A model generated the notes under the pieces. That model saw nothing but the letters and a program-made list of their open reading frames with translations. It was not told where the DNA came from and did not search any database. DNA of 54,260 bases. Origin: a virus. The first letter of the stretch is position 1; each line of letters starts with the position of its first letter. This document shows positions 4,961-41,061 of this stretch, one piece after another. The stretch lies in the IMG/VR virus record IMGVR_UViG_3300044461_000032, one strand, 5' to 3'. The position numbers were made by a program, and so were the translations under genes.

Positions 4961-5473
4961 CTAGGGCAAGGTATACGCCGACAGCGGGGTCACTTCGGCC
5001 GTGAAGTCGCACTTCACGTCCACGCCGAGCGCCCCGATCTGATACTTCGTCACCACGCCCCGAAACGCCAGAATGATGCCGGGAGGCGAACCAGCCCCGT
5101 CGCCCGCGGCGCCAGCCGGGAACTCGATCTCGAAATCGACTTCGGTGACATCGCGCCACAACGACACGAGCGACCGATCCGGATCGAACCCGTCCCCGCC
5201 CGCGACCGTGTGCGAGCCGTGCCCCGGCCGGTAGTTGCCGCGCAACGCAAACGCCCCGGAGTCGCGCAAGGTCGCCAGCTTTTCCCGATGCCGATCCGGG
5301 CTCCGGAGGTGGGTCTTTTCGAGCACGCCGGTCGTCATGTCTCCGGGCGTGATGAGATCGATGTCGGCGACGGCCACAAAGGTCTGTGGGGAGTCGCCCT
5401 GCCCGATCCGCAGTTCCGAGCCATATCCGATGAACGCATCACCGGGGTAAAAAGTGCCAGTCACATCAGCCAT
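4961..5473 (-). CDS. Major tail protein (TP901-1 / GTA g9-like), 170 aa
   Basis: ..GYGSELRIGQG..FVAVADI..TTGVLEKTHLRSPDRHREKLATLRDSG.. pattern. Located upstream of the chaperones. Confidence 0.8.
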   Translation of the reverse strand: MADVTGTFYPGDAFIGYGSELRIGQGDSPQTFVAVADIDLITPGDMTTGVLEKTHLRSPDRHREKLATLRDSGAFALRGNYRPGHGSHTVAGGDGFDPDRSLVSLWRDVTEVDFEIEFPAGAAGDGAGSPPGIILAFRGVVTKYQIGALGVDVKCDFTAEVTPLSAYTLP

Positions 5474-6443: not shown

Positions 6444-6787
6444 GTGAGCAACCCGCCCGCGAGGGTCATCACTTCCACGCCCCGCTTGCGCCCGAGTTCC
6501 TGCGCCGCGACGATGTCGTGGATCCGGCCGCCCACGACGAGTCGTCGCGTCTTCCGCACATCGACCAGGTCCGGATCCCATTCGGCCGAATACGGCAACG
6601 CCCACTTCGTGTCGTAGGGCGCCGACACCTGATCGGCGACGAACCGCTCGCGCCCGCCCATGTCCATCTTCGACGCCCAGACGGATTGCAATGCGTCCCA
6701 CGTCTCCACCGGTCGCCGCGACGCGCCGACGCTCTCTGTCAAGGCCTGCACCGTAATCCACCGATCGCGCGCGCCGTTGGCCGTCAT
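6440..6787 (-). CDS. Head-tail adaptor (head closure, SPP1 gp16/HK97 gp9-like), 115 aa
   Basis: ..RDRWITVQ..WDALQSVWASK.. pattern, plus its position. Confidence 0.7.
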   Translation of the reverse strand: MTANGARDRWITVQALTESVGASRRPVETWDALQSVWASKMDMGGRERFVADQVSAPYDTKWALPYSAEWDPDLVDVRKTRRLVVGGRIHDIVAAQELGRKRGVEVMTLAGGLLT

Positions 6788-7122
6788 GCGATCACGCGAT
6801 CCTTCAACATCCCGAGCGTCCCGTCGAGGCCGAGAATCGTCTCGAGACCCGGCGTCTTCTCATCGTCGCCACGGTAGCGGTAGAGCCACGCTAACACCTG
6901 GAGCACAAGACTTTGCGCCCGTGCGAAGTCCGGATCGGATTCGGGGTCCGTGTCGACGTCCCACTCCCCCGGCCGCTCCATGCGCCAGACCACAATCGCG
7001 GAGGCCTGCTCCATCTTGAGCAACAGATCGGCGTCTTCTTCAGGCGGCGATCCAGCCCCCACGTCCAGCACGCCGTTTTGCTTCAGGTGCGCCACGGCTT
7101 GCGCGTAGGTAATCAGGGCCAT
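6784..7122 (-). CDS. gp6-like head-tail connector protein, 112 aa
   Basis: MALITYAQAVAHLK...EDADLLLKMEQASAIV.. is typical of this family. ATGA overlap with the adaptor gene. Confidence 0.65.
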   Translation of the reverse strand: MALITYAQAVAHLKQNGVLDVGAGSPPEEDADLLLKMEQASAIVVWRMERPGEWDVDTDPESDPDFARAQSLVLQVLAWLYRYRGDDEKTPGLETILGLDGTLGMLKDRVIA

Positions 7123-7829
7123 GCTTGCGCTCCAATGAACTCGGCATCCTTCCGAATCCCGACACGGTGCAGACTGCTCTGCACGCCCAAGTGCTTCACG
7201 AAGAATGGCCGCGACACGAGCCCGGTCGTCATCGACGGCCGATCCTGCAGCGCCCAGTAGCCGAGCAGTTTGTCGAACCCGTCATGGGGCCGATCCTGAA
7301 ACGGGGCGCCTTTCGGTCGCCAGTTCAGCGGGTGGGCCTTGGCCCAGGCCGCGAACCGTCGCGCGTCCGCCGCCCGCATGGCGACGGCTTGCGAGCCTCG
7401 CATTTCACGCAGGGGTGCCGTCGCGAGGTGCGCGCTGACCGGCTTGAGCGTGTCAAACGCGAAGAACCGATAGATCGAGACGTCCGGATGGTGATACGTG
7501 CCGAGCCATCGCGCCATGCTCTCAATCGGATCCGGACACCATTCGAGGTCGTCTTCGCTCATCACGATCCAGTCGGCGTGAATCTCATCCAGGATCGAAA
7601 CCTGCCGGATGGCGTTCTCGTTCGGACGCTGACGCACCGGAGGCGGATAGACGAGCCCGGTCTGATACGGCCCCCCGTCACGCGCCATCCACCCGATGTC
7701 CGGGTCCGTCGGAAAGACGTGGATGTCCGTCCCTGACACGCCGCCGCCGCGCAGACTGTCGACGGTCGACCGGAGGTAGTTCTTCTTCGGGGAGCGGTCG
7801 GCCGTGCGGATGGTCAGGACGAGACTCAC
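7113..7829 (-). CDS. Putative GT-A-fold glycosyltransferase, 238 aa
   Basis: GTG at 7829 (GTGA overlap). N-terminus LVLTIRTADRSPKKNYLRSTVDSL and an acidic SEDDLEW (DxD-like) box. Assigned by eye only. Confidence 0.45.
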   Translation of the reverse strand: MSLVLTIRTADRSPKKNYLRSTVDSLRGGGVSGTDIHVFPTDPDIGWMARDGGPYQTGLVYPPPVRQRPNENAIRQVSILDEIHADWIVMSEDDLEWCPDPIESMARWLGTYHHPDVSIYRFFAFDTLKPVSAHLATAPLREMRGSQAVAMRAADARRFAAWAKAHPLNWRPKGAPFQDRPHDGFDKLLGYWALQDRPSMTTGLVSRPFFVKHLGVQSSLHRVGIRKDAEFIGAQAWP

Positions 7830-8404
7830 GCGGCCCTCCAGAACACCATGGCATTCGACCCATACCACGGCGTGCGCGGCGAACAGCGCAGCCACCGACG
7901 GCGCAGCTCCGACGACACCGCCTCCGCATACGTCAACCCATGCACCCGGAACAAGCCGCGCCAGAACGACGGCTCCGCGCAATGCACATGCCCCGGCCCG
8001 CGCTGCCCCGGTCCCGCCGCGGTAAATAGAATCCGGCCGAGCGGATCCATGTGCCGCACGAGCGTGTCGACGAGCGTCTCGGCATACTCCGCATCCAGAT
8101 GTTCCGCGACTTCCCAACAGATGACCCAATCGAAGCGCCGCTTCAGGTCCACCGGCTCGCGGAGGTCCGCCCGCACGAGCACGTCGATGCCGTCCGGCAC
8201 CGCCAAGTCGATGCCCATCGCTGCGATTTCATGCGCCAGCGCCCACCCGACATGCACGCCTTCGGCGCAGCCGACGTCCAGGAGGCTCGCGGGCGTCCCG
8301 AGCACCTCACAGGCCGTTTCCAGGCACCGGAGCGAATGCGGATGCGTCCACCGTCGCGCGACGTGGTAGGACGACCCAGGCGTGTAAAGGTCAGGCCGCG
8401 ACAT
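7826..8404 (-). CDS. Class I SAM-dependent methyltransferase, 192 aa
   Basis: LLDVGCAEG matches SAM motif I. It is followed by an acidic loop (ADLREPVD) and ..WVICWEVAEHL.. Confidence 0.7.
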   Translation of the reverse strand: MSRPDLYTPGSSYHVARRWTHPHSLRCLETACEVLGTPASLLDVGCAEGVHVGWALAHEIAAMGIDLAVPDGIDVLVRADLREPVDLKRRFDWVICWEVAEHLDAEYAETLVDTLVRHMDPLGRILFTAAGPGQRGPGHVHCAEPSFWRGLFRVHGLTYAEAVSSELRRRWLRCSPRTPWYGSNAMVFWRAA

Positions 8405-9371
8405 GCCGACTCCCACCCCCGATGAGTGCCACAGAGAACGGCGCCCGCAACGTCGTGGCGATCTGGTCGATGACTTGCCGGTGGTCCTTCCGGAAGTTCG
8501 GCCGCGCATAGAACGTCTGCGCCCGCACCCCGACGAACGGCGCCAGATAGGCGAAGCCGCCATACGTCCCGACGTAGCCCTTGGCCCGGGCAATGACGGC
8601 CGTCTGCGTCTCCAGGTTTGTTACGGGGTCCATCGCCACACGATGCACGCGCGGATGTGGCGCGACGTCAAACTCCCCGTGGTCGTCATACTGCGTCCCG
8701 CTGTGCAGGAGCACCACATCGGATGACGCGGTCATCGCCCGCACGATGTCATTCACCATCTGCGTGTGCACGGAGTTCTTCGAGCACGCCATCGAGTTGT
8801 AGAACTTCGCCGCGACATACGACGTCGGCAAGTCGAGCCCATGCGGAGGCACCGCGAACCGCTTCGGCACGGTCATGTGCCTGTAGAGGTGCGGGAGTTT
8901 GCGCCGCCAGAACGGCCGGAAGAGCGCATACATCAGCGACGGGTGCAGGAGTCGAGTGTCAGACAGTCCCGCCGCTTTCTCGACATGCCGCACAATGTCG
9001 CGATCGAAGGTCGAGACGATGTGCTGCTTGGTGGACGGTCGCCCGTGCCGCACACCGCTACACGCCGCCTGCTCGGCCATGCGCTTGTCGTTCTTCTGCC
9101 GATAGCGATCGGGCGGATAGAACTGGAACACGTCGACATAGTTGGGACTGATGTCGGCATACCAGGAGCGGCACCCCCCGCGCGAGACAATCCACAGATC
9201 CTCGCGGTGGAGATGCCCGTGCGCGACCGCCCACCGAAGGAACGGAATCCAGTAGAGCAGCTCGAAGCCCACTTCGCTCAGCCACGGACCCACAATGATC
9301 GGGCCGCGCGTGCGTCCGAGCGCTGCTACCGCGTCGCGGGTGTCCTGCACGAGCTGGAGTTCTGGCGTCAT
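8391..9371 (-). CDS. Putative GT-B-like glycosyltransferase, 326 aa
   Basis: ATG at 9371 (ATGA overlap). C-terminal ..AVIARAKGYVGTYGGFAYLAPFVGVRAQTFY resembles the donor-binding half of GT9-type enzymes. The similarity is weak. Confidence 0.35.
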   Translation of the reverse strand: MTPELQLVQDTRDAVAALGRTRGPIIVGPWLSEVGFELLYWIPFLRWAVAHGHLHREDLWIVSRGGCRSWYADISPNYVDVFQFYPPDRYRQKNDKRMAEQAACSGVRHGRPSTKQHIVSTFDRDIVRHVEKAAGLSDTRLLHPSLMYALFRPFWRRKLPHLYRHMTVPKRFAVPPHGLDLPTSYVAAKFYNSMACSKNSVHTQMVNDIVRAMTASSDVVLLHSGTQYDDHGEFDVAPHPRVHRVAMDPVTNLETQTAVIARAKGYVGTYGGFAYLAPFVGVRAQTFYARPNFRKDHRQVIDQIATTLRAPFSVALIGGGSRHVAA

Positions 9372-9982
9372 GGATACGCCGCCCACTTCCGGTGCTCCGG
9401 GTCCGGCCGCTTGCGCTTGATCGGGCGATTCACAGCAGATGGCTTGATCGATGGCTGGAGGCCCTTACGCACAAAGATGAGATTCGAGCGCGTCCAGCTG
9501 ACGAGTTCGTAGCCCTTTTCAAGTCCCACGCGGGTCAGGGCCAGCGCACTCGCGCCATAGAAGTTCGTGCCGTCCCACCGCCGGTCAGGGTCGTAGGGCA
9601 CCGTCCGTGACTTCGAGGCGGACCACTTCGGGTTGTATTCAATGATGACGACACGCGGCCAATACGCCAGCGCCTTCCACACCCACAGGTCGTTGCCGTC
9701 GATGTCAATCGAGAGCAAGTCAAACTCTTTCGGGATGCCCGCGCTGCGAAACACCTGATTGACGTTCTCCGCGGTGATGTCCGCTTGCCGCACGATGGCA
9801 TCCAAGGGTTCCACGTCGAAGAGATGCACCCGCCAGCCGCGCGCGCGGAAGTAGGCGGTGTTCGACTTGCGGAACCCATCGGCCGCGCCAAACTCCACCG
9901 CGATCTTGTTCGTGGTGCCAATGGCGCGGAAGATGCGCGCCGCCGCCCGGTCCTCTTTCGATTGCGCGTGCCACTTGCTCAT
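9368..9982 (-). CDS. FkbM-family methyltransferase, 204 aa
   Basis: HAQSKEDR..IAVEFGAADGFRKSNTAYF..GWRVHLFD..IDIDGND..YGASALAL..GYELV pattern. Confidence 0.7.
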   Translation of the reverse strand: MSKWHAQSKEDRAAARIFRAIGTTNKIAVEFGAADGFRKSNTAYFRARGWRVHLFDVEPLDAIVRQADITAENVNQVFRSAGIPKEFDLLSIDIDGNDLWVWKALAYWPRVVIIEYNPKWSASKSRTVPYDPDRRWDGTNFYGASALALTRVGLEKGYELVSWTRSNLIFVRKGLQPSIKPSAVNRPIKRKRPDPEHRKWAAYP

Positions 9983-10575
9983 GGGCGGAATCCCCAGTTA
10001 CCGGCAGAGATTCCGTAGGGCTGCTTGGGTCCGATATACCAACTTGGAGGCAGAATCGTCACCTTGATTCCGCGCTCGCGCGCAATCGTCATCCATACGA
10101 GCACGCCGCAATGATCGATCATGTGCTTGTGCTCAAACTTGGTCCCGTGACCGTGCAGCACAATGTGCTCGTAGCCCTCCAGGATCGAGTGCGCGAGCAT
10201 CACATCGACTTGACATGTGTAGAACTTGGGATGCACGTCAAACGCAGCAAGGATCCGCTCTTTGTTAAAGAGCACACCAGCGGGAATCGTTGGATCCAAT
10301 TCGGTCAGATACAGCGGCCTGTAGCCTGGCTTACCAGGCCCTGGCAGGCCCTGATACCACCGATAGGTCTTCGGCCGGTTCCGCTTGATCCCGGCATACC
10401 CAGGCACAGGATCGAATGGGTGTAAATCCCACCAGGCATGCCACGAATCGATGGTGCCGTATTTCGGAGCCCACCTCTGGTTTGAATGAGTTGTTCCCCA
10501 CAACTCAGCGCCCGGATAGCGAGTGAGCGGATCCTCGCGCGACGTGCGTTTCCCTAAAAAAATGACCGTCTTCAC
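9979..10575 (-). CDS. Rossmann-like protein of unknown function, possibly related to the two MptE/Maf-like proteins downstream, 198 aa
   Basis: GTGA-coupled to its neighbour. VIFLGKRTS at the N-terminus and ..VDVMLAHSILEGYEHIVLHGHG.. in the core. Confidence 0.3.
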   Translation of the reverse strand: MKTVIFLGKRTSREDPLTRYPGAELWGTTHSNQRWAPKYGTIDSWHAWWDLHPFDPVPGYAGIKRNRPKTYRWYQGLPGPGKPGYRPLYLTELDPTIPAGVLFNKERILAAFDVHPKFYTCQVDVMLAHSILEGYEHIVLHGHGTKFEHKHMIDHCGVLVWMTIARERGIKVTILPPSWYIGPKQPYGISAGNWGFRP

Positions 10576-11270
10576 GCCGCCACCGCCTCCAGGATCGACC
10601 CCGACAACGTCGCCCCGTAGTGCGCACGGAGCGCCTTGAGCGCCCGCCGATCAGCGGCGACGTGATTGCGCCACCAGTTCGCCGGCCGCTCTTTCGGGAG
10701 GTAGTGGTATCCAGGGGTGAAGGAGAAGCCGACCATCCGCACCGGCACGGCCCCGCAGTAGAGCGCAATCGCCGTCGCGAGAATCCCCGACGAGCACGGC
10801 TCTGTCTCCTTGCGTCCAACCAGCGACTTCGCCGGACGATCACACGTCTCCGTCTCCAGCCAGTGTTTCGTGGGCTTGTCGAGGACCGACCACGTCTGAT
10901 ACGTGACGCCGAGCTGCGCCAAGGCCGCGAGGGTATCCTGCTCGCTGGCCTCTTTCGGGCCGCGCAATAACAGCACATGCCCGACCGTCTTACCCTTGGC
11001 CTGCTGGAGCATGGTCCGGTGCAACGGCTTGATCCGTGCGGTGCCGGGTTTGTCGACGGCCCGACTCGCCACGACCCAAAGATCGACCGGGCTCGCTACG
11101 CTGGAGATACCGCCATTGACCGCAATGACCGTCTCGCGCTCCCGCACATCAGCCGCGGCCGAACCCTTGAGCGGCGCCGAGCCCACCACGACACACGCGC
11201 GGCCTTCGAGCAGCGGGCGCACGCGCTCCACCTGGGACCGATCCACGACCGTCGCCAAGGGGAGGCTCAT
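10572..11270 (-). CDS. MptE/Maf (DUF115)-like or sialyltransferase-like transferase, 232 aa
   Basis: CVVVGSAPL..VIAVNGG..SSGILATAIALYCGAVPVRMVGFSF layout. ATGA-coupled on both sides. Confidence 0.45.
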   Translation of the reverse strand: MSLPLATVVDRSQVERVRPLLEGRACVVVGSAPLKGSAAADVRERETVIAVNGGISSVASPVDLWVVASRAVDKPGTARIKPLHRTMLQQAKGKTVGHVLLLRGPKEASEQDTLAALAQLGVTYQTWSVLDKPTKHWLETETCDRPAKSLVGRKETEPCSSGILATAIALYCGAVPVRMVGFSFTPGYHYLPKERPANWWRNHVAADRRALKALRAHYGATLSGSILEAVAA

Positions 11271-12043
11271 GCCGCCCCCTCTGCTATACTAGGCTCGCTC
11301 AGGCCGGGGTGATGTTGTCCCGGTCGGTTCCCCTCCCGTGGGAGAGGTAACATCACCTCGCTAGGACCAGCTACATGCTGGACAAGCCGAACCACGGGGG
11401 GGTCCAAACCTATCGCCTGTTCCAACTCCACGCGCGGGAAGGCCTTGAGCGCCGTCTTCCGGCTGCAGTTCAGCACCTCGACGCCAGCCGTCTTGAGCGG
11501 CTCCACCAGCGTCTCGAAGCGCTGCAGGCACATGGAGAACGGTGGCCCGCTATTGTTCGGATGCCGCCCGAAGAAGTGCCCGCCTTGCATGTCCACGCCG
11601 AGCAAGAGCACCCGCGAGGCCCCGAGGTGGACTGCCACGTTAATCGACTGATAGGCCCCGTTGAGGCCGAGCGCCACGCGCCCAGGGTCCAGGGTCAAGC
11701 CGGTCTGCGGCCCACGGCGAAGCACCTGCACGTCTGGGTAGCCGGGGACGGCGGCGAGGGCATATTTATACCGTCCGGTGAACGCGGGATACTTCACCCC
11801 GCCGCCCGTGACGTGTGCCGTGGCCCCTTTGTGCCAGCCCCACCAACGGGCGTCCGCCGCATACAGCACGTCCGCATCCGGGGCCAACTTATAGCTATCG
11901 TTCACCGCGATCACTGCCGAGACATGCGCCCGCGCGAGGTCCACGTCGGACTGATGGAGCGACGGACCAGAGCCCATCACGAGCACCGTCCCGCCCTCCA
12001 AGAGCCGGGGCACCGAGGCGAACACCATCGGGCGCTTTACCAT
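11267..12043 (-). CDS. MptE/Maf (DUF115)-like transferase, 258 aa
   Basis: ATG at 12043. VLVMGSGPSLHQSD..AVIAVNDSY..DVLYAADARWW..INVAVHLGASRVLLLGVDM. Confidence 0.5.
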   Translation of the reverse strand: MVKRPMVFASVPRLLEGGTVLVMGSGPSLHQSDVDLARAHVSAVIAVNDSYKLAPDADVLYAADARWWGWHKGATAHVTGGGVKYPAFTGRYKYALAAVPGYPDVQVLRRGPQTGLTLDPGRVALGLNGAYQSINVAVHLGASRVLLLGVDMQGGHFFGRHPNNSGPPFSMCLQRFETLVEPLKTAGVEVLNCSRKTALKAFPRVELEQAIGLDPPVVRLVQHVAGPSEVMLPLPREGNRPGQHHPGLSEPSIAEGAA

Positions 12044-13281
12044 TTGCGCCCCGTCTGCGGGTCCATCTGCGTCAGGTCGCGGCCGTTCGTGCCCGGGTCG
12101 CCCTTCTTGCCTTCCTTGCCTTGCTTGCCGCGCCGGCTCGAAATCCACCAGAGCGGCGATCCCTGTTCGGGCTTTGCGCTGTTCTTCTGTTTGACCACCC
12201 AGGTATGGCCGTCAAACGCGAAGGACGCACCGGGGGGATACTCCTTGCCTGGCTCCCAGTCCCCCGTATAGAACGTAGAAGGCAACACGAACTCCTTCAC
12301 GCGCTCCCCTTGACACAGGCGAAGCACCAGGCCGCGCGTCTCATCCAGATACACGTCGTAGTCATCGAACCCGAGGCCGTCATGGCCGTCCTGCCCGTCT
12401 TTCGGTTTCGGCCACGTCGCAAGCTGCGCGTGTATGGCCCGTTCCACATCAGCCGGATCGACATCCTTTCCGACCACAGCCCCGACGTTCTGCGTCGTGC
12501 CGTCTGAGAGCGTCAGCACGAGATGGCCCGCGCGATCGATAAGCGCACTCGTGAACCCGGTCCCATCCTTCGGGAGAGGAACAGCCGCCACGCGCCGCTC
12601 AATCTCGCGCACGATCAACGGCATCACATCGTCAACGGTGACACTGACGCCGTCCTCCCCGTCTTTCGGCACAGGAATTAACCCGACGTCCTTGGACACC
12701 ATGGAGTAGACACGAGAGACAACCGCCTCCACGTCGATGCTCTTGCCGTCCTGGCCATCCTTCGGTTTCGGAATCGCGGCGACGACACGCGCCACAATCG
12801 CGTCTACGTCTGGGGCGTCCGCGTCATGACCGTCGAGGCCAGGATCGCCCTTCTCGGGCTTCGGCACGAGCGCGAGCACGCGCGATACAATCGTGTCGAG
12901 GTCAGGCGCAGACGCATTCGTGCCTGGATCGCCTTTGTCGCCCTTATCGCCGTCCTTCGGCTTTGGCACGAGTGCCAAGACATGCTCCACGACCTCATCG
13001 AAATCGAGTGGCTGCGCATCCTTCCCCGGATCGCCGTCTTTCGGCTTGGGCAACGCTGCGACAGCCTTATGCACTTCGGCGGCGAGCAACGGCGCCATCT
13101 CGGCCATCGTCACGCCGTCTCGGCCATCACGCGGCACGAGCGCCTTCTGGCTTTCCAAGGCCGTCACGCGTGCCACAAGCGCCGCATTCTCCGCACGCAG
13201 GGCGGCATTCTCTTTGGCGGCAAACTCGCGGATGACCGGGCCGAGCGCCTTCGTGAGCGTCGCGATCTCTGTCGGCGTCAC
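12037..13281 (-). CDS. Collagen-like / P-x-P-K-D-G-x-D-G repeat fibre or decoration protein with a CBM5/12-like C-terminal module, 414 aa
   Basis: N-terminal coiled coil, then seven ~30-40 aa repeats (..LPKPKDGDPG.., ..VPKPKDGDKG.., ..IPKPKDGQDG..). This is followed by ..YTGDWEPGKEYPPGASFAFDGHTWVVKQ.. and six G-X-Y triplets (GKQGKEGKKGDPGTNGRD). Confidence 0.6.
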   Translation of the reverse strand: MTPTEIATLTKALGPVIREFAAKENAALRAENAALVARVTALESQKALVPRDGRDGVTMAEMAPLLAAEVHKAVAALPKPKDGDPGKDAQPLDFDEVVEHVLALVPKPKDGDKGDKGDPGTNASAPDLDTIVSRVLALVPKPEKGDPGLDGHDADAPDVDAIVARVVAAIPKPKDGQDGKSIDVEAVVSRVYSMVSKDVGLIPVPKDGEDGVSVTVDDVMPLIVREIERRVAAVPLPKDGTGFTSALIDRAGHLVLTLSDGTTQNVGAVVGKDVDPADVERAIHAQLATWPKPKDGQDGHDGLGFDDYDVYLDETRGLVLRLCQGERVKEFVLPSTFYTGDWEPGKEYPPGASFAFDGHTWVVKQKNSAKPEQGSPLWWISSRRGKQGKEGKKGDPGTNGRDLTQMDPQTGRKW

Positions 13282-14681
13282 TGGGATAACTCCAACTCTT
13301 TGCGCAGCATCACCGCGAAGGCCGCTTCGACGTCGTCCTCGTCCGCTTCTTCAGGCTCAGTGGTGACAGGCGTCTGGGTCGGCGGTGTCAGGATGGGATT
13401 CTTCGACCGCTCATCGAGGTCCGCAAGACTCCAGTTCTGCTGTTGCAGATACGGTGTCCCGCCACCCTTCATCGGCCCGAGGTTCAGCCGGGCGCGGCCT
13501 TCGTTCGGCGTCAATACCCCAGAGCCGACGCCCTTGGAGATGACGTCCATCATCGTCGACGAGTCCATCAGGAGCAGATCGGTGACGTTGAACTGCGTCC
13601 CGAGCCGCACGCCGCCGACTTTATCCGGTGCCAGTCCGAGGCCGTGGTCCATGACGGACTCAAACGACGTCATCAACGGCTGCAAGCACTGGGTGTAATA
13701 CTGGACATTCAACGCCTGAATGTTGTTATACGGCGGCTGTGGCCCGCCGACGAGATACCACGGCACCCCGAAGGCGTTCGCAATCGCCTCACAGGCGGAC
13801 GACCACTGCTCATTCAGTTGGGACTTGTCCGCCGACTCGGCCAGGCCCTCATATGTCAGGCCGTCTCCGACCACCGCAATACGCCCGCGGTTCTGCCCGC
13901 CGTAGTTCCGCTCCCAGTTTTCTTTGAGACGAAGCGCCGTGGTTTCCGAGATGGCGCCAGGCGCCGTCAGGATGCCACCCGGTTGCGACCCGTTGCCGAA
14001 GAAGTGCGCGCTATTCGCCTGAATCTTCAGGCCGAGCATGGCCGCGATCCCACAGGCATAGAGCGGCGAAATCCCGACGAGCGGATGGTAAAACGAGTTC
14101 CAGAGGTCGTGCATGATCTCGCGCGCTGGGACTACGACCGCCTCTGGGAGTTGCGAGAGGTTGTCGGTGTTCAGTTCGTAGAAGACGGAGCCATCCGGCG
14201 CCACCAGCGGCTTCACGCGCGCCGGGTCGAGCACATACAGGTCCGTGACCACTCCGCGCGCGTCCCGCTGCTTCAGCGCATACGTATTGCCGTGGATGAG
14301 CTTCGACAGCATCCACACCATGCGGAAGTGAAACGGCGTCTGATAGTGGTTCGGGCGGCGCAGGACGGGCGAAAAGGCCGGATTTTCGGTCGGCGCCCAG
14401 ACGTCGTTCTCCTCTTCCCGCACCAACTCAAAGCGCGTCTTCGCGACGTCGCCCGAAATGAGCCGCAGGCAGGCAAAGACGGTCGGATGCTGCAGGAGGT
14501 CGCAGAGGGGCGTCTCAATGTTGCACTGCCAGGCCCCGGTGAACCCTTCGCGGATAATCGAGTGCCAGCCGCCGCGTGACCCCACCATGAGGCCGGCGCT
14601 ATTCGCGGGGCTCATCGCCGCGACGGGCGCCTTGACCGTCAAGGCCGTCGTCATGGCCCGCACAAGCGAGACGTTAGCCAT
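13278..14681 (-). CDS. Portal protein (HK97 family), 467 aa
   Basis: ..HFFGNGSQPGGILT.., ..GRIAVVGDGLTYEGL.., ..QYYTQCLQP.. and an acidic C-terminal tail. Confidence 0.85.
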   Translation of the reverse strand: MANVSLVRAMTTALTVKAPVAAMSPANSAGLMVGSRGGWHSIIREGFTGAWQCNIETPLCDLLQHPTVFACLRLISGDVAKTRFELVREEENDVWAPTENPAFSPVLRRPNHYQTPFHFRMVWMLSKLIHGNTYALKQRDARGVVTDLYVLDPARVKPLVAPDGSVFYELNTDNLSQLPEAVVVPAREIMHDLWNSFYHPLVGISPLYACGIAAMLGLKIQANSAHFFGNGSQPGGILTAPGAISETTALRLKENWERNYGGQNRGRIAVVGDGLTYEGLAESADKSQLNEQWSSACEAIANAFGVPWYLVGGPQPPYNNIQALNVQYYTQCLQPLMTSFESVMDHGLGLAPDKVGGVRLGTQFNVTDLLLMDSSTMMDVISKGVGSGVLTPNEGRARLNLGPMKGGGTPYLQQQNWSLADLDERSKNPILTPPTQTPVTTEPEEADEDDVEAAFAVMLRKELELSQ

Positions 14682-15493: not shown

Positions 15494-17458
15494 CTATGCG
15501 GTGCCGGCGGACCACTGCACGTCGTCCATCCAGGCCACGCCGGCATTCCGCCGCCGCGTCCAGTAGATGTAGCGCTCGCAGCGCAGCGCGACGCTGTTCG
15601 TCTGGAACATCGACACGACCACCGACCCAGTCGCCCCGGCGGGCGATCCGAGCGATCCGGCATCCATGACCGGCGCGTCGTCCATCTCGAGCGACGCCTC
15701 GCGGCTCAGGTCCATCGAGAACCCGCCATCGTCCGCCAGGAAGATTTCCGGCGCGGCGAGCAGGACGATCAGGTTGTTCGCAGGCGTGCCGAGAATCGCA
15801 TACTGCGACGTGACCACCGGCAACCCGTAGAACGTCCCGCCGTTCATGTTGATCGTCGGGAAGGCATAGGCCCCGAGCGACGTCCGCATGAGCGACAGCG
15901 CCAGCGCGACACTGTTCGGCATGATCCAGTGCGTCGGCATGATGTGCGCCGAGATGAAGGAGTTCATCAGGGCTTGCACGTCCACGTCGACCGCATCGAG
16001 CGTCACGCCCGAGGCGTTCAGATTCGCGATACCGTTCGTGATCGAGGCCGGGGAGACGCCCGCCGACGCCGTCTTCGCGGGATCGATGAAGTCGATGTCG
16101 AGCCGTTCCTGCAACGCCCGCACGAGCAAACTGCGGACGCGCGCTTCAGCCGAGGGACTGGAGAACCGCACCAGCTCGTCCGTCAGAACCGCGATGTTCG
16201 CGACCTTCGTGAACGGGATGGTCGTCTCGTTGTAGTCGCCCTTGGTGAGCGGCTTCGCCTTGCCCTGCCCGACCCAGTAGCCCGCCCCGCCCGACGTTTC
16301 GCCGCCGATGCGGGAATTGAAGGAGACGCGGGTCATGCCGTCGATACGGCCGATGATGGTCTGCGGTCGGAGATACTCGATGAACTCGCTCACGAGGTTC
16401 GTCGGGTAGACCAACGGCCCCGCCCACGTCGAGTCCAGCGTGGACCCGGCCGGCACAACTTCCTTGAGTAGCGCCTGAATGCGTGTCAGGCCGGGGAAGT
16501 GATGCTTCGCCAACTCCAGCGCCGAGATGCCCGTCCGGAGTGCCGCCGCGCGGCAAATCACATACTTGGACAGTTCGATGCCGGGCGGCAACTTCTGCTC
16601 CGGCGCCTCGCCCATGACCACATGCGATTGCGGCTGATGGGCCTCGCGCACGTCGCCCGTGGGGGCCTTCGCCACGACCGTGCGGGCCATCGCGGCCTGT
16701 GCGGCTTCCTGCGCCTTGAGGCTGTTCACCTTGCCCGCCAAGGACACGACCGTGCCGGACAGCGCGTTGCGCTCGCCGACTTCGTGCTCTTCGAGACTGC
16801 CATCGGCCGTCTCCCGCGTGTTCAGTTCTTCGAGTCGGGCGTGCTTCGTCTGCAGCTCGGCAATCGCCGAGGTAATCTGATCGCCAATGGGTGTCGCCAT
16901 GCGCGACTCCTTCTGTTGGGAGCCGCCCACATAGGAAGGCGAGGGTGTGTTGACGGTGCCCCCATAGGAGGGCTGAGTGGCGCGTTGCGCCAGGTCCAGT
17001 GTTTTAATCGTGTGAATCGAGGCCGTGGCATTCGCGGCAATCGTCACCGCGGAGAGTTCCATCCATTCCCATGTCAGGAACTTCTGGCCGCCCCACGGAT
17101 CCTTCGCGTTGAGCGGCTCCATCGTGAGGGCTTTGAACCCAATCGAGAGGCCGCGCACGAGGCCCGCCTTGATGAGCGTCCAGGCGCGGTCAATATCGGG
17201 GAGGCCGGTGTCCTTCGCAATCTGCGCGCGGATTTTGATGCCCGCCTTCGTAACCGTCGCCGCGAGCACATGCCCAATGGGAGAATCGGCGCGATGCTGC
17301 CACAAGAGCGGCATGGGCAATCGAAAGACGGCGCCGTCAGGCACGACTACGTCACCGGCCCTATCGACTTCGGGCGTGCTCGCGACGCCTTCGATGATGC
17401 GCTCGTGTTCGTCGATGGTCTTGACGTGATCGAGAAGGCTATACGCCCGCGTGAGCAT
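15494..17458 (-). CDS. Prohead protease (S78/U35) fused to an HK97-fold major capsid protein, 654 aa
   Basis: N-terminal ~150 aa: ..IEGVASTPEVDRAGDVV..LLWQHR..GLSIGF.. This is followed by a coiled-coil delta-like linker, then ..YLRPQTIIGR..VANIAVLTDELVRFS.. capsid motifs. Confidence 0.85.
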   Translation of the reverse strand: MLTRAYSLLDHVKTIDEHERIIEGVASTPEVDRAGDVVVPDGAVFRLPMPLLWQHRADSPIGHVLAATVTKAGIKIRAQIAKDTGLPDIDRAWTLIKAGLVRGLSIGFKALTMEPLNAKDPWGGQKFLTWEWMELSAVTIAANATASIHTIKTLDLAQRATQPSYGGTVNTPSPSYVGGSQQKESRMATPIGDQITSAIAELQTKHARLEELNTRETADGSLEEHEVGERNALSGTVVSLAGKVNSLKAQEAAQAAMARTVVAKAPTGDVREAHQPQSHVVMGEAPEQKLPPGIELSKYVICRAAALRTGISALELAKHHFPGLTRIQALLKEVVPAGSTLDSTWAGPLVYPTNLVSEFIEYLRPQTIIGRIDGMTRVSFNSRIGGETSGGAGYWVGQGKAKPLTKGDYNETTIPFTKVANIAVLTDELVRFSSPSAEARVRSLLVRALQERLDIDFIDPAKTASAGVSPASITNGIANLNASGVTLDAVDVDVQALMNSFISAHIMPTHWIMPNSVALALSLMRTSLGAYAFPTINMNGGTFYGLPVVTSQYAILGTPANNLIVLLAAPEIFLADDGGFSMDLSREASLEMDDAPVMDAGSLGSPAGATGSVVVSMFQTNSVALRCERYIYWTRRRNAGVAWMDDVQWSAGTA

Positions 17459-17496: not shown

Positions 17497-17682
17497 CTAT
17501 TTTGGGTTTCTTAAATCCTTGTCGAGCGCCTTCCGGATGATGTCTTGCACCGACACCCGCTGATACATGGCACGTTGAAACGCCCGGTCATAGAGGCTCT
17601 CCGACATGGTCAAATGCACGTCGGTGGAGGCCTCTTTCGGCGAGACGGACGGCCGGCCGCGGCGATTCACCTGTGGACTCAT
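17497..17682 (-). CDS. Small ribbon-helix-helix-like protein, 61 aa
   Basis: ATG at 17682 (ATGA overlap with the terminase stop). ..TDVHLTMSESLYDRAFQRA..VSVQDIIRKAL.. The remainder of track ORF 17497..18021 overlaps the terminase gene. Confidence 0.5.
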   Translation of the reverse strand: MSPQVNRRGRPSVSPKEASTDVHLTMSESLYDRAFQRAMYQRVSVQDIIRKALDKDLRNPK

Positions 17683-18338
17683 GCGCCCCCACCAAGCACG
17701 AACATCTGGTAAGCCGGCTCCACGGCGTGCCGGTTCCGCTCCATAAGATCGACCGCCATGACCAGCGCCGCCACCCCGTCGATGCGTTCCGTCGAGACCT
17801 TCTTCGAGATCTTTAGGTTGCCGGTCGGGTCGCTTTCGACTGAGACGTTCGAGATGTTCCACCGCAGAATCGGGTGGCCGTCGTGGCGCAGCGTGCGGGA
17901 CAGAATGGCCTTTTCTAAGGACTTCGTCGGGGCGGACAGGCTCGCGAAACCCTGCCGCATCGGGATACAGTCGAAGCCGTCCTGCTCCTGGAGCCGCGTC
18001 ACCAGATCCGTGGCGTTCCACGGGTCGAAGGCGATATGCCGCACGTCAAACTCCGCCGCCCAATCCTTCAACCGCTGGCGCACCACCTCGTAATCGACCG
18101 TCGGACCAGGCGTCACGACCAACTCACCCTCGCGCGCCCACTGGTCGTAGGGCACCCGATCCCGTCGCGACCGCTCGAGGATGGCGTCCTTCGGCACAAA
18201 GAACTGGGCCAGCACGTCAAAGCCGTCATCGTCAGGAAAGACCGCCACGGTCGCCGTCAAGTCCTTCGTGGAGCTCAGGTCCATCCCGACGTAACATCGC
18301 CGGCCGAGCAACCGCTGTCGATACTCCGCTCGGGTCAT
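17679..18338 (-). CDS. Large terminase, nuclease (C-terminal) domain encoded as a separate ORF, 219 aa
   Basis: ..GRRCYVGMDLSSTKDLTATVAVFP..IAFDPWN..ERIDGVAALVMA.. (RNase-H-like acidic residues). Its ATG at 18338 overlaps the TGA of the ATPase ORF. Confidence 0.8.
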   Translation of the reverse strand: MTRAEYRQRLLGRRCYVGMDLSSTKDLTATVAVFPDDDGFDVLAQFFVPKDAILERSRRDRVPYDQWAREGELVVTPGPTVDYEVVRQRLKDWAAEFDVRHIAFDPWNATDLVTRLQEQDGFDCIPMRQGFASLSAPTKSLEKAILSRTLRHDGHPILRWNISNVSVESDPTGNLKISKKVSTERIDGVAALVMAVDLMERNRHAVEPAYQMFVLGGGA

Positions 18339-19240
18339 GCCGCCTCCGTCACGCAACACGCATCCCAGGCCGGCATCGAAATCCACCGCGCCGCCTGCTC
18401 CGTCCACTGATTGAGATACAGCCGCCGGAACGTGTTTTCCTGCGCCGGGATTTCCTTGGCCCGCGCCGCGGCGATCCGCATGTCCTCCAGGCTCCGGAAG
18501 TCCCCGAGGGCCGGGTTCGCCTTCTTCCACACCTTTTCGTCCGTCCAATCGGCATCGATCGGCGCCTCATACAGAATCGGCAGGAAGGTCGGATCGAGGC
18601 TCGGGTTCTCTTCCACCTTCTTCGCGTGCGCGTAGAGTTCCCAGAGAATCGAATGCCGGTCATAGCCGGCCGTGGTGATGGCAATCATGTAAGGTTGCGC
18701 CCGCGCCCCTTGGCTGGTGGAGAGCACGTCCCACAGTTCCCGGTTCTGGGCTGCGTGGAGCTCGTCATAGATGACGACCGAGGCGTTAAAGCCGTGCTTG
18801 CTGTAGGCTTCGGCCGAAATGGCGCGGTAGAAGCTGCCGGACTTGCGATGCACGATCCGCTTCTGGGAATCGATGATCTCGCATTGGGCCAGGAGTTCAG
18901 GATCGTTCCGAATCATCTGCGCCGCGACGTTGAACACGAGCGCCGCCTGGTCCTTGTCCGAGGCCGCGCTGTAGACTTCCGCGCCAATCTCCCCGTCAAA
19001 GAGCAGGAAGTAGATTGCCAGCGCCGCGCACAGTTCAGACTTGCCGTTCTTCCGCGGCAACATCAGGAGGCAAGTCCGGTATTGTCGCAGGCCGTCGCGG
19101 CGGGTGGTAAACATCCGCTTGACGATACCCACCTGCCACGGGCGCCGCAGGTTGAACGGTTGCCCCGCAAACGGCCCCTTCGTGTGCGTGAGTTGGTTGA
19201 TGAGCCGCACCGCTCTAGCCGCCTGGGTTTCCGCCCTCAC
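18335..19240 (-). CDS. Large terminase, ATPase (N-terminal) domain ORF, 301 aa
   Basis: ..LLMLPRKNGKSEL.. (Walker A), ..VVIYDELH.. (Walker B), ..NQWTEQAARWISMPAWDAC.. GTG at 19240 overlaps the small-terminase TGA. Confidence 0.8.
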   Translation of the reverse strand: MRAETQAARAVRLINQLTHTKGPFAGQPFNLRRPWQVGIVKRMFTTRRDGLRQYRTCLLMLPRKNGKSELCAALAIYFLLFDGEIGAEVYSAASDKDQAALVFNVAAQMIRNDPELLAQCEIIDSQKRIVHRKSGSFYRAISAEAYSKHGFNASVVIYDELHAAQNRELWDVLSTSQGARAQPYMIAITTAGYDRHSILWELYAHAKKVEENPSLDPTFLPILYEAPIDADWTDEKVWKKANPALGDFRSLEDMRIAAARAKEIPAQENTFRRLYLNQWTEQAARWISMPAWDACCVTEAA

Positions 19241-20349: not shown

Positions 20350-20649
20350 CTAGTTCACCACGCGCCAGACGTCAGGCGCTTTACTGTTCGGGAAGTACCC
20401 GACCAGGTTATCCCCGTCCGTGAGCGAGAACCGCACCTGATACACCCCGACGCTCAAGGCCTCGACCCCCAGGACGGCCACGGTGCCGGCGTCCTCATTG
20501 AGCCAATCGACGGTGACCGTGTCGATTTCGTCGCTCCCAAACAAGATACGTATCCCGACCGTAAACCCAGTCCCGTCAATCGGAACCCCGTCGTTTTCGA
20601 GCCGAAATTCCTGCGGTTCACTCGTGCCAACCGGAATCACATGGGTCAT
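20350..20649 (-). CDS. Small beta-rich (Ig-like?) protein, 99 aa
   Basis: ATG at 20649 (ATGA overlap). Confidence 0.55.
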   Translation of the reverse strand: MTHVIPVGTSEPQEFRLENDGVPIDGTGFTVGIRILFGSDEIDTVTVDWLNEDAGTVAVLGVEALSVGVYQVRFSLTDGDNLVGYFPNSKAPDVWRVVN

Positions 20650-21923
20650 GACGAACACTCCCGACGCACACGACGGACCGGCACGAGCGACACCACCCCA
20701 CGAACCGGCGTCAGGGCAATCACCGAATAAGTCGGGGTGAGGCTGACCACCGTGGTATCGCAGAGGTCCACTTCTGGCTGCAGACCGGCGAAGAAGGAGG
20801 TAGGGGCGCCCGTGATGAGATACGTGCCCGGGCTGAGCACGAACACGCGCGCCCCTTGTAAGGTCGCTGCCGCACCCGTAATGGCGTAGGCCCCAGGCGA
20901 CGCCACGAGCGCCCGATTGAGATGGAACGTGGCGTCTGCGCCGGTGAGGGCATAGGCCCCTGGATTCGCCGAGAGGAAGTGTTCGACTGCGAGGGTCGCC
21001 GAGGAACCTGTGATGACGTAGGTGCCCGAATCAGCCTGCAGAATGTGTGCGCTCAGGAGCGTGGCCGCGCTGCCCGTCAGGGCATAGGCGCCTGCCTCAG
21101 CATTCAGGGCAAAGGCGGCAAACGTCGTGAGCTCTGCATCGGCACCGGAGAGGACATACGCGCCTGGACTGGCCGAGAAGAGCAGCGCGCGCTGGAACGT
21201 GACATCCGCGCCCGTCAGCGCATAACTGCCAGGGTCGGCAATGAGCGCAAAGATGCCCGCGAGGTTGAGTTCCGCCGCGACGCCTGAGATGAGATAACTT
21301 CCAGGGCTGGCGTTCAGCGACCGAGCCGTCAGGAGGGTCGCGCTCGAGCCCGTCAGGCTGTAACTGCCAGGACTCGCGAGCAGGGACCGGACCAGGGAGA
21401 GCGTGGCCACGCTACCCGTGAGGTCGTAGGCGCCTGGACTCGCCGTGAGGGTTCGGGCGGCGAGCAGTGTAGCCGCTGAGCCTGTCAGCGCATAACTGCC
21501 TGGATCGGCCGAGACCGATCGCCCCGAGAGCAGGGACGCACTTGAGCCGGTGAGGGCATAACTCCCAGGACTCGCCGAAATGGTCCTGACGAGTTGAAGC
21601 GTCCCATTCGCCCCGGTGAGGGCGTAACTCCCTGAGGCGGCGTTGATGGTCCGAGCCGAGAGGAGCGTGGCGCTCGACCCGGTGACCGCGTAACTACCAG
21701 GGGAGGCCGTAATCGTATGGGCCGAGGTCAGAGTGGCACTGGCCCCAGTCAGGGCATACGCACCACTCGCCGCCAGGAGCGCATGGGCCGCGACCGTGAT
21801 GGCGGCAGCGCCCGTCACGGCATAACTCCCCGCATCGCAGCTCAAGCTATACGCGTTCGCGACCGTGGGCGGAAAGCTGGTCAGCCACGGTTTGAACGGT
21901 TGCGCGCGTCCGAGTCGTGCCAT
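20646..21923 (-). CDS. Tandem-repeat protein (16 x ~22 aa P-G-S-Y-A-L-T-G-S-x-A-T-L units), 425 aa
   Basis: Repeats are read directly from the translation. The N- and C-termini are unique. Confidence 0.75.
   Translation of the reverse strand: MARLGRAQPFKPWLTSFPPTVANAYSLSCDAGSYAVTGAAAITVAAHALLAASGAYALTGASATLTSAHTITASPGSYAVTGSSATLLSARTINAASGSYALTGANGTLQLVRTISASPGSYALTGSSASLLSGRSVSADPGSYALTGSAATLLAARTLTASPGAYDLTGSVATLSLVRSLLASPGSYSLTGSSATLLTARSLNASPGSYLISGVAAELNLAGIFALIADPGSYALTGADVTFQRALLFSASPGAYVLSGADAELTTFAAFALNAEAGAYALTGSAATLLSAHILQADSGTYVITGSSATLAVEHFLSANPGAYALTGADATFHLNRALVASPGAYAITGAAATLQGARVFVLSPGTYLITGAPTSFFAGLQPEVDLCDTTVVSLTPTYSVIALTPVRGVVSLVPVRRVRRECSS
20770..21840 (-). repeat. Diverged ~66-bp in-frame tandem repeat array (about 16 units) inside CDS 20646..21923
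   Basis: Periodic GSYALTG / GAYALTG units. The DNA copies are diverged, not identical. Confidence 0.7.
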
Positions 21924-21926
21924 CGA

Positions 21927-22130
21927 CTAGAGTCCTGCCCCCATCACCCCGAACCGACCCGGATCGGCCACGAGTTCATAGTGCCGGCGTCCGCAGACCC
22001 GACATTGCTTGACAATCATCCCGTGCCGATGCTCGGCCGAGTGGGTCGCCAAGGTCTCAAGGTTCCTGGGCTTGGCACAACACGGGCGCAAAATCCCCTT
22101 CACGACCGACCGCGGATCGATGAGGACCAT
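21927..22130 (-). CDS. Small Cys/His-rich protein, 67 aa
   Basis: ATG at 22130 overlaps the upstream TAA (TAATG). ..CCAKP..HSAEHRH..CRVCGRRH.. Confidence 0.45.
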   Translation of the reverse strand: MVLIDPRSVVKGILRPCCAKPRNLETLATHSAEHRHGMIVKQCRVCGRRHYELVADPGRFGVMGAGL

Positions 22131-22576
22131 TACGCCAGGGTGAAGATGGTCCCCGCGACGCCCACCGCCGCATTGTTGAACTTGACCGAGAACGACTCGC
22201 CATCTGCCAACGTCAACGGAGAGGCATAGTCCCACCACGCGATGAGCGGGTCCGCGTTCGGCGTCGTCGGCGTGTCGTCGTAGATGGCGACATACTGAAA
22301 CGGTCCCACGGGGCCGGCGCTCGCCGTGATCGTGAACGAGATGCCCGTCAGGGTGACCGTGCCACCCGTCCGCGTGGAGTCGTTCTGCGTATCCACGGGA
22401 GCGGTGTAGCCGTTCTGATTCGTGATCTCAGCCAGGTCCGCCTTGACCGTATCCCCGGAGGCCGAGGGCGTGGCGTTGCTGAGATAGGCGTTGATGACTT
22501 CGGCCGTCCCGAACAAGTCCATTTCCTTGTTCATGAGGCACTGCACGAAGGGCTCGAATTTGTTATACGTCGCCAC
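22130..22576 (-). CDS. Conserved phage protein of unknown function (virion-type), 148 aa
   Basis: MATYNKFEPFVQCLMNKEMDL..ADLAEITNQNGY..PLIAWWDY.. resembles a recurrent phage family whose function I cannot name. Confidence 0.5.
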   Translation of the reverse strand: MATYNKFEPFVQCLMNKEMDLFGTAEVINAYLSNATPSASGDTVKADLAEITNQNGYTAPVDTQNDSTRTGGTVTLTGISFTITASAGPVGPFQYVAIYDDTPTTPNADPLIAWWDYASPLTLADGESFSVKFNNAAVGVAGTIFTLA

Positions 22577-22577
22577 G

Positions 22578-23099
22578 TTAAACCTCCACCGTCATGTAAC
22601 AGACCGCGTTGACCGCCACGGATGTGTGGGTACGAATGCGCCCGAAGAGCCCCAGGTTGATGACCGGCTCCCGCCCGAGGGGGAATTGCTTCACGAACTC
22701 ATATCCGTTGGAACTGGGCACCGTCACGGTGATCTGGTCAAAGAGCCGCACGGCCGTGATACTACCCTCACCGGCACTGGTGTAGCCGGTCGAGGTTGTG
22801 CCAACTTGGATGAGGTTCGTCGACGGGTCGCCGCCCGCGACCGCATTCGCGTCCAGTTTGTTCAGGCCTGCCGCCACATGCGCCGTCACCGTGGCCGCCA
22901 CGTCCGTCTCGAGCAGCTCGGCCACGAACAGGCAGGCCGAGGCGGGCGCGTCGCACTTGATGCCCCACTCGACAATCTTCGCGAGCACGGTCGCGGAGGC
23001 TTTCACTTGCAGGAGCGTCTTGATGGACGTGCCCGTCGTCACCGCGACAAACTTCGCCGTGGTCGGGGTGGCACCGTTGAAAATCTGATACAACGCCAT
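22578..23099 (-). CDS. Hypothetical beta-rich structural-type protein, 173 aa
   Basis: Clean ORF whose stop lies 1 nt before the next start. Confidence 0.5.
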   Translation of the reverse strand: MALYQIFNGATPTTAKFVAVTTGTSIKTLLQVKASATVLAKIVEWGIKCDAPASACLFVAELLETDVAATVTAHVAAGLNKLDANAVAGGDPSTNLIQVGTTSTGYTSAGEGSITAVRLFDQITVTVPSSNGYEFVKQFPLGREPVINLGLFGRIRTHTSVAVNAVCYMTVEV

Positions 23100-23108
23100 A
23101 GGACTCCT

Positions 23109-24431: not shown

Positions 24432-24450
24432 CAGCAGGACTCCCCACACA

Positions 24451-26435: not shown

Positions 26436-26461
26436 GGTTTACGGCTTTCGCAAGGAGGGGC

Positions 26462-36221: not shown

Positions 36222-36343
36222 TTGGCCCCCTTGGACCGGCACGTCGCACAGGGCAGGACCACGGTCGTCATGTAATACGCCTTCCGGCACGCGAGGCACG
36301 TCACGAGCACGGCTTCGATTTGGTGGTCATCATAGGAGCGCAT
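36218..36343 (-). CDS. Small zinc-ribbon-like peptide, 41 aa (below the ORF-track cutoff)
   Basis: MRSYDDHQIEAVLVTCLACRKAYYMTTVVLPCATCRSKGAK. Coupled to neighbours at both ends. Confidence 0.4.
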   Translation of the reverse strand: MRSYDDHQIEAVLVTCLACRKAYYMTTVVLPCATCRSKGAK

Positions 36344-41036: not shown

Positions 41037-41053
41037 GACGGCTGAGACGACTA

Positions 41054-41061
41054 GGGCGTTC
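41054..41061. repeat. Target-site duplication GGGCGTTC (left copy, IS element 2)
   Basis: Identical 8-mer at 43677..43684. Confidence 0.85.

Follow-up and report, generated by a model that had tools for sequence, protein, structure and literature searches.

To our knowledge, phage-encoded glycosylation of the virion has been shown experimentally in only a few actinobacteriophages, where it alters the recognition of the particle by antibodies. In Corndog, a mycobacteriophage of cluster O, an O-methyltransferase gene and three glycosyltransferase genes adjoin the portal gene (PMC4351075), and the cluster O cassette is reported (PMC11600133 and PMC12619734, citing Freeman et al. 2023) to glycosylate the subunits of the capsid and the tail tube. 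The present analysis concerns a cassette of seven genes, referred to here as gA to gG in the order of their transcription, which is found in the IMG/VR virus record IMGVR_UViG_3300044461_000032. The window, that is, the whole stretch of 54,260 nucleotides (nt) analyzed, represents a circularly permuted phage genome of approximately 54 kb. Corndog (gp35-gp38) and the related Che8-type systems resemble the window (PMC4351075) in that the methyl- and glycosyltransferases are located inside the structural operon, directly after the portal.

The cassette is read here as a late-expressed accessory module that would act in the cytoplasm to decorate one or several virion proteins with a short methylated glycan, an interpretation to which we give about an even chance, and within which we infer the timing of the expression, the protein acceptor, and the identity of the sugar. 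The seven products are predicted to comprise five soluble glycosyltransferases (gA, gB, gC, gE, and gG) and two methyltransferases dependent on S-adenosylmethionine, or SAM (gD and gF).

The seven-gene block, at 7113-12043, lies between the genes of a post-portal repeat protein and a gp6-like connector, and reading of the sequence found an overlap at all eight junctions, including those with both flanking genes. The post-portal gene and gA share 7 nt (ATGGTAA), ATGA overlaps are found at 11270, 9982, and 9371, and GTGA overlaps at 10575 and 7829; gE and gF share 14 nt, and the end of gG shares 10 nt with the start of the gp6-like gene. Translational coupling links the cassette to the genes of the portal, the post-portal protein, and the connector. 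The seven tightly packed minus-strand open reading frames (ORFs) described in the first-pass annotation of the window were thus recovered with the same coordinates and the same eight overlaps. Every gene examined in the window is carried by the minus strand, and a tail-fibre gene spans both of its ends.

The start codons chosen fit the N-termini of the homologues in the alignments, and an independent JGI gene call is the same for the five upstream cassette genes, with a shorter gF, of 159 amino acids (aa), and a longer gG, of 260 aa. Purifying selection acts on all seven genes, whose ratios of nonsynonymous to synonymous substitution (dN/dS) are 0.06-0.28 versus their relatives. A scan found no promoter-like sites inside the cassette, and terminator-like sites only at the level expected by chance. 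A membrane-type hydrophobic segment is present in none of the seven proteins.

The assignment of gG as a glycosyltransferase of GT-A fold is firm at the level of the predicted structure, as had been proposed from its acidic box. The AlphaFold model has a predicted local distance difference test (pLDDT) score of 92.6, and Foldseek returned 300 matches in the PDB at E <= 1e-3, including POMGnT1 (5ggf, E = 7e-8), GnT-I, Mimivirus R655, and SpsA. The acidic box, of the DxD type (E92-D93-D94), is invariant across 32 homologues. At the sequence level, gG has no match in Pfam, NCBIfam, or PHROG, and its family profile recovers only chance-level matches among the PDB sequences. The prediction of a class I SAM-dependent methyltransferase for gF is equally firm, given a score of 34.4 bits against Methyltransf_23 (PF13489; cutoff of 27, E = 2.3e-8) and the glycine-rich motif I, LLDVGCAEG, and agrees with the initial description. 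This gene is missing from some of the related cassettes (L005, L090, and L094-L097).

The two remaining enzymes outside the gA-gC group are placed less securely. The FkbM-type methyltransferase first proposed for gD is a borderline assignment: seven members of its family match the FkbM/Methyltransf_21 model (PF05050) at E <= 0.01, but gD itself scores 22.6 bits for a cutoff of 22.7 (E = 1.3e-4). The gE family is large, with 1559 homologues, and the GT9 model (PF01075) is matched weakly, in the C-terminal domain, by 7 of 25 members. One homologue (P0108, 43% identical to gE) reaches 24.9 bits for a cutoff of 22, again over the C-terminal domain only. These weak family matches hint at a GT-B-like (GT9-like) glycosyltransferase, in line with the earlier GT-B suggestion, although the gE of the window has no match in Pfam, and its family profile finds only chance-level matches among the PDB sequences.

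The products of the first three genes of the cassette had been described as Rossmann proteins, two of them with the motif layout of MptE/Maf (DUF115) or sialyltransferase-like enzymes. The Maf and GT42 enzymes are soluble proteins that transfer nine-carbon sugars activated by cytidine monophosphate (CMP) to proteins or glycans. For gA, the assignment is good at the family level: it matches phrog_4603, annotated as 'alpha-2,3-sialyltransferase', with E = 2.3e-35, and the alignment of its homologues reveals the conserved motifs GSGPSL, AVND, and LLGVDM. The match with the MptE-like/DUF115 model (PF01973) is 18.5 bits, below the cutoff of 34.6. The protein has 258 aa versus 210-232 aa in all its relatives, and residues ~214-258 (11267-11404 in the window) have no counterpart in these sequences; either the loss of a stop codon or a tail specific to the lineage could account for this C-terminal extension of approximately 45 aa.

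No Pfam, NCBIfam, or PHROG family is matched by gB, and PF01973 is not matched either. A search of 1.84 billion representative proteins recovered 92 clusters of gB relatives, and hhalign relates this family to that of gA with a probability of 86% (E = 5e-6), which supports a distant homology of the two proteins. Both gA and gB have the motif order of GT42 and Maf, in which GxGPS is followed by VN, then by S/T-G, a helix, and a strand ending in G-x-D/S, with a downstream histidine. When gB was aligned with an approximate CstII query by hhalign, S160-G162 and H203 fell on the TSG motif and the GHS histidine of CstII, the latter of which we take to be the catalytic His188, in a match that is itself weak (E = 1e-3, probability of 20%). 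One long member of the gB family is fused to a GT2 domain, and is one of the sequences P0398, P0399, P0393, P0339, and P0356; another candidate for this fusion, P0316, was rejected, as it has no GT2 match.

The gC family is restricted to phages and has only 67 homologues, all of them at least 52% identical. The gC model (pLDDT of 88.8) has weak Foldseek matches in the PDB (3l8m, 3lm8, and 1ro7; E = 3e-3 to 2e-2, TM-scores of 0.40-0.53), and in the BFVD it matches proteins of uncultured phages (3e-11) and a DUF115 protein (8e-3). This points weakly to a Rossmann protein with a fold like that of thiamine pyrophosphokinase, CstII, or DUF115. The later part of the GT42/Maf motif order is present in gC, and the N-terminal motifs are absent. 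There is no match with PF01973, and no signal was obtained with hhalign against the gA or gB profiles. The profiles of all three families recover only chance-level matches among the PDB sequences, and the Pfam scan found no CST-I match among the cassette proteins. The description of three Rossmann proteins, two of them MptE/Maf-like, therefore stands as far as phrog_4603, the homology of gA and gB, and the weak fold similarity of gC are concerned, but not at the PF01973 cutoff.

The gC protein is 65% identical to the copies in the related contigs L001 and L084, with saturated synonymous sites, and the flanking cassette genes are 80-95% identical. This pattern suggests allelic exchange, or the replacement of a single enzyme, possibly with a change of specificity.

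A survey of related phage genomes, which the first-pass annotation had listed as a check, recovered the cassette with the same order of genes, and at the same site between the repeat protein that follows the portal and the connector, in approximately 15 IMG/VR contigs, and in one NCBI contig from a metagenome-assembled genome (MAG). In the most distant of these relatives (L096 and L097), the capsid is 35-36%, the portal 44-45%, and the cassette proteins 42-62% identical to those of the window. The divergence of the capsid and the portal, with the cassette kept in place, indicates a long co-inheritance of the cassette with the structural module. Extra genes are inserted in some of the related cassettes, and L004 carries a second FkbM methyltransferase (41.9 bits). 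In the cultured relatives of the backbone, the Rhizobium phage RHph_X2_26 and the Stenotrophomonas phage SOVA965, the post-portal protein is followed directly by the connector, with no cassette, which identifies the cassette as an accessory insert. Its conserved position in the structural module plausibly favors the glycosylation of the virion.

The same operon has another accessory insert in RHph_X2_26 (L123, 5666-6880), an SGNH-hydrolase gene situated between the gene of the capsid and that of the portal. A distant viral contig (L107, 13563-16163) has a gE-like gene approximately 3 kb upstream of an SU10-type portal gene, and a DUF268 gene directly before this portal, which may represent another sugar or methyl cassette of a structural module.

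Among the GenBank phages, the whole cassette has no blastn match, and tblastn searches of 50,697 phage records found no match for gB, gC, gE, or gG. Like gC, gG belongs to a small family that is restricted to phages. The gA protein has matches in 75 of the GenBank phage records, and gB-family genes are found in other phage structural modules, where they adjoin genes of the BPP-1 type (Bbp16, GP7, and Bbp19). In PAJU2, the gA homologue gp10 is located between a head-closure gene and the genes of a 275-aa protein and a Methyltransf_23 protein. The backbone of PAJU2 is 43% identical to that of the window in the capsid fusion, 43% in the portal, and 25% in the post-portal protein. The gA homologues of D3, orf6.5 and orf7, lie between the capsid and connector genes, and D3 orf12 and orf13 are homologues of PAJU2 gp11 and gp12. 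A comparison of PAJU2 gp11 with the gG and gB families by hhalign gave no signal, and the middle gene of PAJU2 is thus not from a cassette family. Further gA matches include PmgO, PmgP, and HdmB of P1 and P7, and proteins of the Caulobacter and Brevundimonas jumbo phages. A literature search on PmgO found nothing relevant.

Outside the viruses, relatives of gE provide a lead to the host. The gE protein has 394 cellular relatives in a scan of one genome per species, and the best 77 loci are nearly all from MAGs of the Vicinamibacterales or other Acidobacteriota, with 39-46% identity. In the reference locus (L006, 1-21161), the gE homologue is surrounded by NeuB, two CTP_transf_3 genes that resemble CMP-sugar synthetases, two Epimerase_2 genes, and a methyltransferase. 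Within 10 kb, NeuB was found in 60 of the 78 cellular loci, Epimerase_2 in 52, and CTP_transf_3 in 50; all 78 loci have a gE paralogue, and 19 have a homologue of the FkbM-like gD. The identity with the genes of the host cluster is 42% for gE and 28% for gD (gene u301). Homologues of gA, gB, gC, and gG, and phage structural genes, are absent from the cellular loci surveyed. Also common to the Vicinamibacterales loci (L006 and L007-L083) are two gE-like paralogues, two proteins of 560 aa that weakly resemble GT4, a GT2 gene, and a conserved 252-aa protein of unknown function.

The Vicinamibacterales cluster is probably a nonulosonic-acid surface glycan locus, and is apparently undescribed. The sequence evidence makes a member of the Vicinamibacterales (Acidobacteriota) the probable host of the phage, and gE, perhaps together with gD, would have been borrowed from the surface-glycan locus of such a host. 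A tblastn search of the window recovered no genes for the synthesis of nonulosonic acid, and families of sugar-nucleotide synthesis, flippases, polymerases, and integrases were found in none of the window genes checked, a set that covers, at 43.6-47 kb, the ORFs of at least 150 aa. This upholds the initial statement that no sugar-nucleotide synthesis, flippase, or polymerase genes accompany the cassette, which would have to rely on the sugar-nucleotide pools of the host.

The same resemblance of gE and gD to conserved genes of a host glycan cluster is compatible with the remodeling of the host surface, in which the enzymes would act not on virion proteins but on lipid-linked or surface glycans of the host, such as the nonulosonic-acid glycan of the Vicinamibacterales. 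The masking or alteration of the phage receptor would then lead to superinfection exclusion, or would prevent the progeny from being trapped on debris. Phage glycosyltransferases that change the host serotype are well known (PMC12619734), and cytoplasmic glycosyltransferases can use undecaprenyl-linked intermediates without membrane segments of their own. The cassette, however, is embedded in, and translationally coupled to, the head-tail joining genes rather than being near an attachment site, and neither an integrase nor a flippase, a polymerase, or a membrane protein is found among the genes checked. The cellular loci surveyed lack four of the seven families, and unrelated phages also carry genes of the gA and gB families in their structural modules. 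The remodeling of the host surface is accordingly considered unlikely.

The known serotype-conversion modules (gtrABC, or the O-antigen acetylase and Wzy inhibitor) are similar to the cassette in that phage-encoded sugar-modifying enzymes work on host precursors. These modules are membrane-bound, situated by the integrase or attachment site, and expressed from the prophage, whereas the enzymes of the window are predicted to be soluble, their genes belong to the late structural operon, and the genes checked include no integrase. An O-antigen conversion module was rejected on these grounds, that is, the lack of membrane-helix segments, the lack of an integrase family in the scanned genes, and the location in the late operon.

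A number of points weigh against the glycosylation of the virion. The resemblance of gE and gD to host surface-glycan genes fits a host-modifying role as well, late co-expression is deduced from the gene layout, and the assignment is firm only for gF and gG, given that the similarities of gA-gE are below the thresholds or at the level of profiles and folds. The fold of gC resembles thiamine pyrophosphokinase at least as well as CstII. The C-termini of the proteins that form the capsid and the tail tube have no obvious Ser/Thr-rich tails, and the acceptor was not identified. In addition, the PAJU2 homologue ORF010 (AP009624, 7780-8349) is annotated as a 'structural protein', the same label as that of the major tail protein of PAJU2, which it adjoins, and the P1 homologues are named 'putative morphogenetic' proteins; the gA family could thus have a non-enzymatic or assembly role. 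If the PAJU2 label rests on virion protein data, this gA homologue may be associated with the particle.

These annotations, together with the scores of gA, gB, and gC, which are all below the Pfam thresholds, are the basis for an alternative in which these three proteins, like P1 PmgO/PmgP and PAJU2 ORF010, would serve in morphogenesis or be associated with the virion, having kept the Rossmann scaffold but lost sugar transfer. Only gD-gG would then be enzymes, or the cassette would modify a protein by methylation alone. The PAJU2 and P1 annotations are names only, however, and even very divergent members strictly retain the GSGPSL/GSAPL and VNG/VND motifs, which are of the nucleotide-binding type, as well as the invariant Ser, Gly, His, and Asp residues downstream of them. 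The co-occurrence with a GT-A enzyme and methyltransferases, and the gB-family member fused to GT2, also argue against an assembly function, which we regard as improbable.

If the virion is indeed glycosylated, the cassette proteins would be made late in the infection, together with the head and neck proteins, and these cytoplasmic enzymes would draw on host sugar nucleotides to modify one or several virion proteins with a short O-methylated oligosaccharide, either prior to assembly or in the course of it. The donors may be CMP-activated ulosonic sugars, either nonulosonic acid or 3-deoxy-D-manno-octulosonic acid (Kdo), and ordinary nucleoside diphosphate sugars. What suggests the CMP-ulosonic donors is, for gA-gC, the GT42/Maf-like fold class and, for gE, the context in the host. 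The hosts of the P1 and D3 relatives may offer only CMP-Kdo, and the presence of gA relatives in phages with such hosts makes Kdo no less plausible than nonulosonic acid. Candidates for the acceptor are the capsid, the tail tube, and the post-portal repeat protein; the glycan would form a coat on the surface of the particle, resulting in shielding or altered adhesion, as reported for the mycobacteriophages.

A more specific version of this scheme, viewed as doubtful, is that three Maf/GT42-like enzymes use host CMP-sugars to cover the particle with a methylated glycan similar to that of the host, with nonulosonic acid or Kdo as a constituent. If it were true, this would be the first ulosonic-acid-glycosylated phage virion, and unrecognized virion glycosylation could be common in Gram-negative phages, because gA relatives are present in the head-tail modules of D3, PAJU2, and P1. 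No papers on phage capsids bearing nonulosonic acid were found in a literature search.

In the order of transcription, the region of the window around the cassette comprises an HNH endonuclease, the small terminase, the large terminase (in two ORFs), a protease-capsid fusion, two small ORFs, and the portal, followed by the repeat protein, the cassette, the gp6-like connector, Phage_HCP, an HK97-gp10-like protein, tail completion, the tail tube, and the tape measure (Table 1).

Table 1. Positions in the window of the seven cassette genes and of the flanking structural genes (coordinates include the stop codon).
Feature	Position	Strand	Length	Basis of identification
gA	11267-12043	minus	258 aa	
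gB	10572-11270	minus	232 aa	
gC	9979-10575	minus	198 aa	
gD	9368-9982	minus	204 aa	
gE	8391-9371	minus	326 aa	
gF	7826-8404	minus	192 aa	
gG	7113-7829	minus	238 aa	
Portal protein	13278-14681	minus		PF04860, E = 5.7e-78
Prohead protease-major capsid fusion (candidate acceptor)	15494-17458	minus		TIGR01554, NF045541, TIGR01543
Major tail (tube) protein (candidate acceptor)	4961-5473	minus		PF16461 Phage_TTP_12
gp6-like connector	6784-7122	minus		Placed immediately ahead of the genes for Phage_HCP, an HK97-gp10-like protein, and tail completion; no direct family match
Post-portal repeat protein (candidate acceptor, or neck/head fibre)	12037-13281	minus	414 aa	PHROGs 1289 and 2271, tail-fibre PHROGs

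The post-portal protein had been described as collagen-like, a term that applies only loosely, as the protein has seven 'hPxPKDGxxG' motifs (h = hydrophobic) with a period of ~31 aa, and its G-X-Y runs are short. The PHROGs 1289 and 2271, annotated as 'portal protein', match it over what appear to be C-terminal extensions of portals. This protein, which is homologous to PAJU2 ORF007, may be a neck or head fibre. The virion proteins had also been called Ser/Thr-rich, a description that does not hold, given a Ser and Thr content of only 9-15%. The specific link between the cassette and the post-portal protein is considered to be weakened.

The two consecutive ORFs of the large terminase (17679-19240, minus strand) encode the ATPase and part of the nuclease (~301 aa), and the rest of the nuclease (~201-219 aa). 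This split recurs in two independent contigs, and may for this reason be real, or reflect a programmed frameshift, rather than a sequencing error. Upstream of the terminase, the region at 20646-30697 (minus strand) contains large genes of 648, 642, 443, 218, ~440-476, and 425 aa, of which only one has recognizable domains (PKD repeats). The G+C content is 0.56-0.58 at 41000-45000, versus 0.61-0.67 elsewhere, in a segment that comes shortly after two recombination genes, ERF and YqaJ, located at 38.4-39.9 kb.

The phage also encodes a protein of 735-761 aa with a helicase C-terminal domain and an N6/N4 DNA methyltransferase domain (34014-36299, minus strand). The presence of this separate enzyme among the early genes bears on whether the cassette might modify DNA, with altered bases acting against restriction, or another non-protein target, such as a small molecule. 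Phage glycosyltransferases often glucosylate DNA (PMC12619734), and the cassette has two methyltransferases, but these are of the FkbM and Methyltransf_23 types, rather than DNA methyltransferases. No base-hydroxymethylase or nucleotide-metabolism genes are found nearby, and the cassette is part of the morphogenesis operon. A role in DNA modification was rejected, given the types of methyltransferase, the position in the operon, and the lack of a nearby base-hydroxymethylase, and a non-protein target in general is thought to be very improbable.

The combination of genes had been presented as not recognized among described operons. This remains valid for the seven-gene set, which was found in no sequenced cultured phage, but the arrangement as such is known from the cluster O mycobacteriophages, and gA homologues are present in D3, PAJU2, and P1. 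The cassette suggests an independent origin of virion glycosylation, based on unrelated enzymes, in an uncultured lineage of phages of soil Acidobacteria, and connects this strategy with a widespread and uncharacterized family, phrog_4603 of P1, D3, and PAJU2, which makes it testable in culturable systems. The lead to a Vicinamibacterales host, and to a conserved, undescribed nonulosonic-acid glycan locus in this order, is a further outcome of the analysis.

Among the known systems, the Maf proteins (DUF115/MptE-like, PF01973) and the GT42 enzyme CstII share their motif order with gA and gB; gA has a weak PF01973 match, and the gC model resembles both CstII and a DUF115 protein. The Maf proteins differ in being much longer and in their flagellin context, and the scores of the window proteins are below the family thresholds. 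Within phrog_4603, whose phage proteins owe their names to similarity or genomic position, gA is a member, 26-34% identical to PmgO-PmgP of P1, orf6.5-orf7 of D3, and gp10 of PAJU2. As in the window, a gA-type gene is found among the head-tail joining genes of D3 and PAJU2, accompanied by a Methyltransf_23 gene. In these phages, by contrast, the cassette has approximately three genes (gA-like, the unrelated 275-aa protein, and the methyltransferase) in a slightly different slot, and D3, PAJU2, and the P1-type phages lack gB, gC, gE, and gG.

The Corndog-type cassette, like that of the window, is without sugar-nucleotide synthesis genes. It has four genes and is found in phages with Actinobacteria hosts, whereas the window has seven genes and a different host phylum. 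The enzymes of the window have no detectable sequence relation to those of the mycobacteriophages, given that gB, gC, gE, and gG had no tblastn match, and that no mycobacteriophage is present among the gA matches listed. The window also differs from Corndog in its three MptE/GT42-like enzymes, in the relationship of one of its enzymes to a gene of the host nonulosonic-acid cluster, and in being known from its genes alone. The cassette would work like the cluster O system, but is not a member of it.

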